DNA of 64,000 nucleotides from an uncultured Candidatus Saccharibacteria bacterium (GTDB lineage: Bacteria; Patescibacteriota; Saccharimonadia; Saccharimonadales; JALRHH01). The DNA is taken from assembly GCA_964474995.1 (NCBI GenBank), contig CAYYUY010000004.1:23857-87856 (forward strand), read 5' to 3'. Under the pieces are notes generated by a model. That model was not told the origin of the DNA. It was given only the letters and a program-made list of their open reading frames with translations, and did no database searches. Made by a program: the position numbers and the translations under genes. This document shows, in pieces, positions 22,101 through 23,045 of this stretch; position 1 is the stretch's first letter, and each line of letters opens with the position of its first letter.

Positions 22101-23045
22101 ATGGCTACAACTACCAAATCCAAGAGTTCTGCAAAACCAAAAACTACCAAACGTCCAGCGAAAGCCGCTGCCGCTAAAGCACCTACTAAAGTCACTAAGA
22201 AAACTGTCTCTAAAAAAGTAACAACTAAAACAACCAAAGCGGCTGTAAAACCAGCTGTCAAAACAACTAAAGTTACAAACACTGCACGCACACTCACAAA
22301 CGCCACACTTCGTCGTTGGCATCTTTTGTCAGCTGCAGTATTTGTTATTCTCGCCGTCGTAACGATTCTCGTTGCCAAGGTGAGCACCTATGACTTCACG
22401 TTGAGCCACGCTACACGTGATGATCTCGCAAGTGGTTCTGAAACAGTATTTGCCTCAGCAGCACATGTGATGACTACAATTGACTTACGCTGGATCCTTG
22501 TTGTGATCCTCGGTGTTTCAGCTGTTATTTCGCTACTACGAGCTACTCGTCTCAAGGCAAAAGAACAGAAGGCAGTCAGCACACACGTATCACCAGTTCG
22601 CTGGATTGACTTTGGTGTGACATTTGGTGCACTTGTTGCCACCACGCTTCTGATTTCTGGTATTCACGATGCCGGCTTCCTTAAGCTCGTTGGCTTCACC
22701 GTTATTGTTGGTTACTTCTTTAGCTGGCTTGCTGAAAGCGAAGCAGCGACCACAAATATACGTACCAAACTGTTTTACGCTGCAAGCATTGTTGCTGCCG
22801 TCGTACCATGGTTGATCTATGCATGTGCCGCTATCGGCACCGAAGTATACGGTGAAGTTCGCTACAGCTGGTTTGCATATGCAGCCGCCGCAACAGCATT
22901 CATCGGTGTAGTGTTGGTCGCAAACAACCAGAAGCGCGCACTGCGTGGTGCAATTGCATACATCAAAGCAGAGCGTAATTACGTTGTTCTGAACCTTCTT
23001 ACCAAAGCTGTCTTTGCAGCCGTCCTGATCCTCGGCCTCCGCTAA
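22101..23045 (+). CDS. Heliorhodopsin-like 7-TM retinal protein with long Lys/Thr/Ala-rich N-terminal tail
   Basis: Seven hydrophobic segments. Block-wise match to heliorhodopsin 48C12 as I remember it:
- WHLL (TM1 His)
- SPVRWIDFG vs FRWVEYS
- FFSWLAE vs LFGWLQE
- AVVPWLIY vs GIVPWIGL
- AERNYVVLNLLTKAVF vs GERAYIVLSLVAKSAL (Lys codon AAA at 23004-23006)

The first ~65 aa are a K/T/A low-complexity tail. Confidence 0.7.
   Translation: MATTTKSKSSAKPKTTKRPAKAAAAKAPTKVTKKTVSKKVTTKTTKAAVKPAVKTTKVTNTARTLTNATLRRWHLLSAAVFVILAVVTILVAKVSTYDFTLSHATRDDLASGSETVFASAAHVMTTIDLRWILVVILGVSAVISLLRATRLKAKEQKAVSTHVSPVRWIDFGVTFGALVATTLLISGIHDAGFLKLVGFTVIVGYFFSWLAESEAATTNIRTKLFYAASIVAAVVPWLIYACAAIGTEVYGEVRYSWFAYAAAATAFIGVVLVANNQKRALRGAIAYIKAERNYVVLNLLTKAVFAAVLILGLR

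Follow-up and report, generated by a model that had tools for sequence, protein, structure and literature searches.

A polybasic N-terminal tail on a divergent heliorhodopsin-family protein and its relatives at a Saccharimonadales-type locus

We analyzed 64,000 nucleotides of DNA from an uncultured Candidatus Saccharibacteria bacterium (assembly GCA_964474995.1, contig CAYYUY010000004.1, positions 23,857 to 87,856; this whole stretch is called the window here, and coordinates refer to it unless a locus is named), in which an open reading frame at 22101-23045 had been annotated as a heliorhodopsin (HeR) fused to a very basic N-terminal tail. There can be little doubt that the gene product is a HeR-family protein. 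It begins with a 66-residue polycationic tail, predicted to be disordered and cytoplasmic, which we hold with high confidence to be real, translated, and under selection. The initial annotation had singled out this tail as unusual; it is indeed genuine, but it turned out to be a clade-wide property at a conserved locus and not a peculiarity of a single open reading frame. Its role may, tentatively, be that of an electrostatic tether to a polyanion. Ever since HeRs were discovered in 2018, the question of their function has stood open. All statements below on promoter, topology, structure, and disorder are to be read as predictions. The features underlying the account are the following.

22101..23045, plus strand: HeR-family open reading frame, ATG at 22101 to TAA at 23045, 314 aa plus stop
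22101..22298, plus strand: polycationic disordered tail, residues 1-66, predicted cytoplasmic (composition, AlphaFold2)
22299..23042, plus strand: seven-transmembrane (7-TM) heliorhodopsin domain, residues 67-314 (AlphaFold2, and Foldseek against TaHeR and 48C12)
22101..22154, plus strand: N-terminal motif MATTTKSKSSAKPKTTKR, family consensus M-A-T-T-T-K-x-x-K-A-K-T-K-T-T-K-K
22182..22220, plus strand: mid-tail block PTKVTKKTVSKKV, residues 28-40, of the KK-x3-KK type, identical in protein P0008 of locus L007
22086..22094, plus strand: extended -10 element TGgTATACT found by a promoter scan, ending 6 nt ahead of the ATG

Composition, conservation, and translation of the tail

Residues 1 to 66 include 18 Thr, 17 Lys, 12 Ala, 6 Val, 4 Ser, 4 Pro, and 2 Arg; the net charge is +19, and there is no acidic, aromatic, or large hydrophobic residue. 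This is the basic low-complexity sequence quoted in the initial annotation, and it has, as was said there, no counterpart in 48C12: the alignments begin at residues 8-11 of 48C12 and TaHeR. The AlphaFold2 (AF2) model renders the tail as coil, with a predicted local distance difference test score (pLDDT) of 50-59, and neither Pfam nor this model revealed a recognizable folded N-terminal domain in the window protein. When Pfam was run on three tails, no family was returned at E<=10. A homology search with the tail only gave 22 candidates, none of which produced a score; it is uninformative and does not count as negative evidence. The DNA coding for the tail is CA-rich, with an AT skew of +0.49 and a GC skew of -0.37.

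The N terminus of HeRs is cytoplasmic (PMC9166423). The loops on the N side of the window protein hold, apart from the tail, seven Lys or Arg and one Asp or Glu, while the opposite side holds three and seven, respectively. This positive-inside pattern, taken together with the HeR topology, places the tail in the cytoplasm by prediction, and the acid-free charge of the tail itself fits the cytoplasmic location that had been proposed for it.

Nothing comparable to the tail occurs elsewhere in the 64-kb window, and in 187 kb from 10 related loci the HeR tails were the sole long acid-free polybasic stretches on real genes. A lineage-wide habit of polybasic tails was rejected on the same 187 kb, where SecA and HPF have short basic C termini only. 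An origin by tandem-repeat slippage was rejected as well, the tail DNA containing a single 9-nt, two-copy match. An amphipathic membrane-binding helix was likewise discarded, the hydrophobic-moment z score over 90 tails being about 0 at both 100° and 170°.

We then determined how widely the tail is distributed. The first eight homologues retrieved with the full-length query are all 311-322 aa long and start with an invariant MATTT, followed by a tail of 60-75 residues rich in Lys, Thr, Ala, and Ser. Three GTDB genomes with a relative are all metagenome-assembled genomes (MAGs) of Candidatus Saccharimonadales and show the same tail; the assignment of the clade to Saccharimonadales is based on these three GTDB loci plus the shared synteny, and in our analysis the window itself was placed with these Patescibacteria/CPR genomes by similarity and gene order. 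Searching exhaustively with HMMER and only the 7-TM domain as the query, we obtained 443 cluster representatives (50% identity). Of the best 150, 101 extend at the N terminus by 25 aa or more, nearly always with a polybasic sequence, which answers the suggestion in the initial annotation that HeR homologues be surveyed for basic extensions; these tail counts refer to cluster representatives, and start-codon miscalls would make them underestimates. In 88 clean tails, the median length is 66 and the median net charge +17, and the composition is K 24%, T 19%, A 16%, S 11%, V 8%, and D+E 2.5%, with K+R at about 30%. A profile search showed that the canonical branch, recognizable by RWIEY, both conserved His residues, and SLVAK, carries the same tails, ranging continuously from about 20 to more than 100 residues. 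Overall, tail length runs from about 15 to more than 100 residues.

Two motifs recur at fixed positions of the tail. The sequence K[TS]KT lies within the first 25 residues in 43 of 88 tails, against 6.6 (maximum, 15) in shuffled tails, and beyond residue 25 it was met only once across all 88. Near residue 25, KK[TAS][VTA][SATV]KK was found in 28 of 98 tails (2.8 in shuffles; maximum, 9). The mid-tail block PTKVTKKTVSKKV is identical in the canonical orthologue P0008, even though the 7-TM bodies of the two proteins are just 27% identical. At the DNA level, 7 of its 39 nucleotides differ between the window and P0008, and all 7 changes are synonymous, none being nonsynonymous. The longest substring common to the two tails is 13 residues, compared with a mean of 4.3 and a maximum of 10 in 1,000 shuffles.

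The canonical Saccharimonadia-type HeRs P0008 and P0272, which are annotated as 'MAG: heliorhodopsin HeR', occupy the same locus beside msrA and upstream of the TRAM methyltransferase gene. As in the window gene, their tails start with MATTTK and include PTKVTKKTVSKKV, and a -10 box adjoins the ATG. They keep RWIEY, both His residues, and SLVAK, whereas the window protein does not; the latter belongs to a fast-evolving subclade, with 27% body identity to the canonical orthologue and a remodeled retinal pocket. The shared synteny in a block of housekeeping genes indicates that the HeR genes are orthologous and points to a tail that is ancestral to the orthologues at this one conserved Saccharimonadales-type locus. 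One relative in a different genomic context, P0236 (L017), is truly tail-less.

A -10-like hexamer (TATACT, TATAGT, TAAACT, or TACACT) begins 12-13 nt upstream of the ATG in 10/10 orthologous loci and has a TGn extension in 7 of the 10; no sequence resembling a Shine-Dalgarno (SD) element was seen in the last 20 nt ahead of the ATG in any of them. A -10 box only 6-7 nt from the ATG and the lack of an SD sequence predict a leaderless HeR mRNA that starts at or beside A22101 and, with it, a translated tail. After codon 1, the window gene has no in-frame ATG, GTG, or TTG until Leu75, a residue within TM1. A true start downstream of the basic region, considered in the initial annotation, was rejected on three grounds: no alternative start codon, the conserved -10 box, and purifying selection in the tail. 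In two relatives, the called gene is shorter than the frame allows. P0221 (L015, about 4926-5738), called at 245 aa, can be extended upstream in frame to MAKTTSKNSKK..., and P0230 (L016, 4806-5774), called at 257 aa, to MATTTKKSSARKK...; in both, a -10 box stands 6 nt ahead of the extended ATG. Gene callers thus clip the tail in some relatives, because the mRNA is predicted to be leaderless, and tail-less HeR entries from these genomes are often annotation artifacts.

Many canonical tail bearers (P0008, '...KSVMDRLFRWN'; P0158, '...LTKMQKLFR') keep a Met at the point where tail-less HeRs begin (M-[DQE]-K/R-L-F-R-W-N). A tail-less short isoform made from this internal start is conceivable in the canonical branch. 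The window protein has Leu at that position, which excludes such an isoform.

Family membership, fold, and retinal pocket

The HMM search that the initial annotation had proposed gave a significant match of residues 70-309 to the Pfam family Heliorhodopsin PF18761 (59.3 bits, the gathering score being 26.7; E=4.6e-16), covering positions 1-237 of the 242 in the profile. Among PDB sequences, the window protein matched TaHeR at E~1e-10 and 48C12 at E=1.5e-6, and with the family profile the E-values for these HeRs were 1e-53 and 7e-42, respectively. With the NCBIfam HeR equivalog model NF038020, it scored 60.6 bits, below the 100-bit cut-off. Since the equivalog score falls below the cut-off and key residues are altered, the protein is a divergent member of the family and not a canonical HeR.

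The AF2 model, built from 92 relatives, has a mean pLDDT of 88.9 and a predicted TM score (pTM) of 0.79, with pLDDT above 90 across residues 66-314. It contains seven TM helices (67-91, 129-148, 165-185, 191-217, 224-250, 257-281, and 287-313), which correspond to the seven hydrophobic segments noted before, and a HeR-type beta-hairpin in extracellular loop 1 (ECL1) at 96-128, with strands 96-106 and 117-128. Searched with Foldseek against the PDB, the model matched best to 6is6 (TaHeR), with a target-normalized TM score of 0.91 and a root mean square deviation of 1.4 Å over 249 columns. The top 10 matches are HeR structures exclusively; type-1 rhodopsins come next, eight orders of magnitude worse in E-value. 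The proposed identity of the protein was thereby borne out both by the Pfam score and by the predicted structure, and the prediction of topology and structure that had been called for gave a 7-TM HeR fold, a disordered tail, and an N-in charge bias.

Actinobacterial 48C12 (PDB 6su3/6uh3) and TaHeR from Thermoplasmatales (6is6) belong to the same Pfam family and have the predicted fold with its ECL1 hairpin (TM score, 0.81-0.91). They share with the window protein the Lys in the Schiff-base column, R-W ahead of the counterion, P-W in TM-E, and the predicted N-in topology. Structure-based identity to them is 17-20%. The window protein differs from both in having Asp in place of the Glu counterion, and its top sequence match is the TaHeR E108D mutant, 7clj. 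In comparison with 48C12, His23 is replaced by Phe, His80 by Ser, Ser237 by Asn, and Tyr108 by Phe. The 66-residue polybasic tail is absent from 48C12 and TaHeR. The residues concerned were located by alignment as follows.

23004..23006, plus strand: Lys302 (AAA) in NLLTK, retinal Schiff-base column (Lys241 of 48C12), invariant in A1 and A2, the two homologue alignments showing this column
22608..22610, plus strand: Asp170 (GAC) in RWIDF, counterion column (Glu107 of 48C12, Glu108 of TaHeR)
22341..22343, plus strand: Phe81 (TTT), column of the conserved His23 of 48C12
22530..22532, plus strand: Ser144 (TCG), column of the conserved His80 of 48C12
22992..22994, plus strand: Asn298 (AAC), Ser237 column, giving NxxxK in place of SxxxK

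Checking the columns against known HeRs upheld two of the three earlier assignments. Lys302 does align with the retinal-binding Lys241, and Asp170 with the counterion Glu107, as the initial annotation had read them, and VVPW is present at residues 234-237. The conserved His, which had been placed in the WHLL of TM1, was not upheld: His74 aligns with Asn16 of 48C12, and the His23 column holds Phe81. Both conserved His residues of the inner polar cluster (His23 and His80) are lost in the window protein. At the counterion position the carboxylate is retained, one methylene shorter, and the neighboring Tyr108 column is occupied by Phe171. With Lys302 and Asp170 in place, the putative binding of retinal may well be retained.

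We then compared these columns in 116 canonical relatives and in a divergent clade, defined as the 140 near-full-length representatives nearest to the window protein. In the canonical set, H, H, E, S, and K occupy the key columns in about 100% of the sequences; the His23 column holds His in 114 of the 116. The divergent clade (n=140) gave the following picture.

His23 column: mostly F or Y
His80 column: mostly S or P
Counterion (Glu107) column: D 66, E 24, other 50
Ser237 column: N 44, S 33, D 27
Schiff-base Lys241 column: K 109, not K 31

The Schiff-base Lys is thus missing in 22% of the divergent representatives (P0011, P0035, P0042, P0044, and P0050 being examples), where it is replaced by R, A, L, T, V, Q, I, or N. 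The alignment of TM7 in these Lys-less members is unambiguous, being anchored by ERNY...GL. Most of them keep a tail of 40-106 aa, which indicates that the role of the tail does not strictly depend on retinal photochemistry.

In one Saccharimonadales MAG (JBPCJO010000085.1; L006, 2928-3827), the HeR orthologue has Ala in the TM3 counterion column (RWVAL) and Asp at Ser237 (DMFTK). Its DxxxK resembles that of type-1 rhodopsins, and the counterion may have shifted from TM3 to TM7.

The absence of retinal and carotenoid biosynthesis genes from the window was confirmed for open reading frames of at least 150 aa, a Pfam scan of which detected neither blh or crt genes nor a gene for a type-1 rhodopsin. 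From studies of their type-1 rhodopsins, it has been suggested that Saccharibacteria take up retinal from outside (PMC9296517).

Possible roles of the tail

By analogy with other proteins, we propose, with a probability of about 0.4, that the tail is a cytoplasmic electrostatic tether to a polyanion. Placed in the cytoplasm by HeR topology and the positive-inside rule, it would form an electrostatic arm that binds nucleic acid in the first place, or else the anionic inner membrane leaflet, and that tethers or couples the 7-TM domain to this partner. Nucleic acid is ranked first because the composition parallels that of nonspecific DNA/RNA-binding tails and because a 66-residue arm in an ultra-small cell would meet the nucleoid and the ribosomes, with both of which a saccharibacterial cell of 0.2-0.3 µm is packed. 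If retinal, acquired from outside, is bound to Lys302, light would move the cytoplasmic ends of the helices and thereby modulate the arm, which in Lys-less relatives would be constitutively active.

Acid-free tails rich in Lys, Ala, and Thr, such as those of the histone H1 C-terminal domain, the mycobacterial HupB C terminus, Chlamydia Hc1, and Pseudomonas AlgP, bind nucleic acid nonspecifically. The H1/Hc1/AlgP likeness drawn in the initial annotation held for composition but not as a family match, and membership in these families was rejected on the lack of a Pfam match and the rarity of motif repeats (S/TPKK at 0.16 and PAKK-like sequences at 0.11 per 100 aa). Like the C-terminal domain of H1, the C terminus of HupB/MDP1, Hc1, and AlgP, the HeR tails are long, disordered, and acid-free, with about 25-30% Lys plus Ala and some Pro, and PAK/KPA-like snippets occur in them too. 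They differ in having more Thr/Ser (about 30%), less Pro (about 4%), and few S/TPKK motifs, and in being attached to a polytopic membrane protein, whereas H1-type tails are attached to a DNA-binding globular domain. The lamin B receptor, in which a basic nucleic-acid/chromatin-binding N-terminal tail precedes a multipass membrane protein, would offer an analogy if the tether holds: a polybasic arm on the nucleic-acid side of the membrane, with a helical bundle after it. The two are not homologous and stem from different domains of life, so the likeness is one of working principle alone.

Several observations weigh against a tether. Pfam, run on the three tails, linked them to no family of DNA- or RNA-binding domains. 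Outside the motifs, the tail is less conserved than the body in close pairs (0.42 versus 0.79 and 0.63 versus 0.80), and at the same locus its length varies about 7-fold. Fast turnover is usual for disordered regions constrained in composition; together with the length range, it also fits a weak or purely compositional constraint. Synonymous sites of the tail are A-rich and G-poor, with A at 0.53 of third positions versus 0.27 in the body, and this RNA-level signal could reflect leaderless expression instead of protein function. Finally, the known partners of HeRs, all from other phyla, are proteins (glutamine synthetase, photolyase, and an ABC transporter) and not nucleic acids (PMC11109279).

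A more specific form of the tether proposal, in which the HeR orthologue would be a membrane scaffold holding nucleoid DNA or ribosomal or messenger RNA, light-gated where the retinal Lys is present and constitutive in roughly one-fifth of the divergent clade, appears decidedly improbable. If true, it would be the first nucleic-acid-directed output of any rhodopsin and would amount to the conversion of a photoreceptor into a light-independent structural protein.

The alternative that fares best, though still an unlikely one, is a role in biogenesis or at the membrane surface: the tail would be a topogenic clamp that enforces the N-in orientation, lying on the anionic inner leaflet with no soluble ligand and perhaps influencing clustering or the local lipid environment. 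The pronounced positive-inside bias (+19 on the N side) agrees with this, as does the direct junction of the tail to TM1 with no folded domain between, and the length continuum suggests a dose-like effect of charge over a precise interface. An MprF-type LPG_synthase_TM gene in the window is a weak sign that the lineage manages its membrane charge. However, the tail-less proteins 48C12, TaHeR, and P0236 insert correctly with few flanking charges, and 60-100 residues exceed the needs of topology. Interfacial binding would also call for hydrophobic or aromatic residues or for amphipathic periodicity, none of which the tail has, and position-specific motifs with a 13-residue block under purifying selection would not be expected of a charge clamp.

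More doubtful still is that the tail is mainly a feature of the mRNA, with an A/C-rich, unstructured 5' coding region that aids leaderless initiation and a K/T/A peptide that is a tolerated by-product and drifts in length. CA-rich sequence 3' of the AUG has been reported to boost the translation of leaderless mRNA in Escherichia coli. The promoter architecture seen in 10/10 loci suits this explanation, and in 9 of the 10 hardly any structure is predicted for the first 60 coding nucleotides, with a minimum free energy of 0 to -3.4 kcal/mol versus about -10 to -13 kcal/mol in the gene body. The preference for A and avoidance of G at synonymous sites runs throughout the tail (AAG, 0.19 versus 0.35 in the body; ACG, 0.03 versus 0.18), spanning 22131-22298 in the window and the tail regions of L004-L013, far past the first few codons. 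The nucleotides ATGGCTACAACTAC are near-identical between proteins that are otherwise about 30% identical, and the large variation in tail length fits as well. From the synonymous-site bias and the unstructured 5' end, it follows that part of the tail signal lies at the RNA level. Against an RNA role as the main one stands the expectation that initiation effects span about 10-20 codons, not 60-100. Moreover, despite A/C-rich codons, Asn, Gln, His, and Pro are rare in the tails, Ala, Ser, and Val are common, and Asp and Glu are almost absent, a spectrum for which A/C-rich RNA by itself is an insufficient explanation. The mid-tail block has changed only synonymously relative to a distant orthologue, and the short-tailed orthologues in L014 and L015 have the same promoter architecture.

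We give somewhat less credence to a docking arm for a specific acidic protein or a phospho-regulated switch, in which the motifs would be short linear motifs and Thr/Ser phosphorylation would tune binding. Here, the two position-specific motifs far above shuffles and the 30% Thr+Ser of the tail would find a ready meaning, and an RNA methyltransferase is tightly linked, 2 nt downstream. The experimentally known outputs of HeRs are all direct protein-protein contacts (PMC11109279), and folded N-terminal fusions (MORN, Zn-ribbon) are proposed by Bulzu et al. 2021 to be partner-recruiting modules in other HeRs (PMC8612252). No candidate partner is at hand, though, the conserved neighbors being a syntenic set of housekeeping genes; the window open reading frames scanned include neither a Ser/Thr kinase nor an FHA protein, and most of the tail is of low complexity with fast sequence turnover.

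An annotation artifact, with the start downstream and the basic region an untranslated leader, is very improbable: the clipped gene calls of P0221 and P0230 and the conserved Met of many canonical relatives, located exactly at the tail-less HeR start, would suit it, but the window gene offers no start codon as far as Leu75, more than 150 diverged sequences keep both the open frame and its composition, the clipped calls extend to MAKTT... or MATTTKK... behind the same -10 box, and purifying selection within the tail acts at the protein level.

Whether or not the tail is a polyanion tether, N-terminal additions to HeRs are not new as a class. Bulzu et al. 2021 described MORN and zinc-ribbon fusions and catalogued N-terminal variants ntv1-10, the others of which are not described in the main text (PMC8612252). 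In MORN-HeR and Znf-HeR, as here, a cytoplasmic addition precedes the HeR core and is the proposed output or partner-recruiting part; those additions are folded domains from Firmicutes and Thermoplasmatales, whereas the window tail is a disordered polycation with no detectable domain. The comparison with ntv2-10 covers the main text of that paper. For Saccharimonadia, Chiriac et al. 2022 gave a count of 80 HeRs and made no comment on their N termini (PMC9166423). The claim of an undescribed architecture in the initial annotation therefore has to be narrowed: N-terminal extensions of HeRs had been catalogued (PMC8612252), while no published description or interpretation of the polybasic type was found in the searchable literature. 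The photoreceptor family is a known one. What appears to be undescribed is the conserved polycationic arm, along with its predicted leaderless expression and the fact that it persists in derivatives that have lost the Lys. The HeR of PDB entry 9vfc, 317 residues long, matches the profile only from residue 44 and so has an N-terminal extension of its own, the alignment of which gave no sign of polybasic likeness.

To a rhodopsin specialist, an extension as such would be unsurprising, and it is the clade-wide conservation that carries the weight. Few protein partners of HeRs are known, all of them in other phyla; here, a coherent clade of ultra-small, genome-reduced bacteria has a candidate cytoplasmic output element at a fixed locus beside an oxidative-damage repair gene and an RNA methyltransferase gene, and this conservation gives a concrete experimental entry to the question of HeR output. 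The SxxxK motif served as a HeR filter in Bulzu et al. 2021 (PMC8612252) and in Chiriac et al. 2022 (PMC9166423). Such SxxxK/Lys filters of published surveys exclude a substantial, divergent, and partly Lys-less branch of HeRs.

The locus and neighboring genes

The typical locus has the order (DUF427)-msrA-HeR-TRAM/m5U RNA methyltransferase-RsmE-PD-(D/E)XK-SerRS-HPF-SecA-M16 peptidase. The genes on either side of the HeR gene in the window are as follows.

21546..22052, plus strand: msrA, peptide methionine sulfoxide reductase (Pfam PMSR, E=4.6e-65)
23048..24295, plus strand: TRAM-domain (uracil-5) RNA methyltransferase (Pfam TRAM plus tRNA_U5-meth_tr)

The methyltransferase gene starts 2 nt past the HeR stop codon, a spacing that makes it probable that the two are cotranscribed. 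It lies directly 3' of the HeR gene in every locus read except L013, in which two genes intervene. The msrA gene adjoins the HeR gene in L004, L005, L007, L008, L010, L011, and L015, is one gene away in L014, and is missing upstream of it in L006, L012, L013, and L016. Its orientation flips between lineages, being on the opposite strand in L004, L005, and L010 and on the same strand in L007 and L015. It has been suggested in the literature that HeRs are linked to protection from light-induced oxidative stress. The adjacency of msrA may fit such a link, and plain synteny equally.

Two genes in the conserved block of the window are additional to those of L010, the closest syntenic relative. The first (24354-25052), between the methyltransferase and RsmE genes, encodes a DUF5671 membrane protein, and the second (25802-28162), between the RsmE and PD-(D/E)XK genes, a 786-aa trypsin-like protease. 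Besides the HeR gene, just one real gene of the window has a basic tail. It encodes SecA (30819-33410), whose C terminus at 33294-33410 ends in a short, strongly basic ...KKARKTERKRRAAGKRRK that is conserved in relatives (L007 and L010). Farther downstream are a stand-alone response-regulator receiver (43083-43553), with no histidine kinase among the open reading frames scanned, and the MprF-type LPG_synthase_TM protein (48082-49149), which possibly modifies membrane charge. At 60615-61655, a 346-aa protein matches KwaB of the Kiwa anti-phage defense system (PF16162, E=7e-14).

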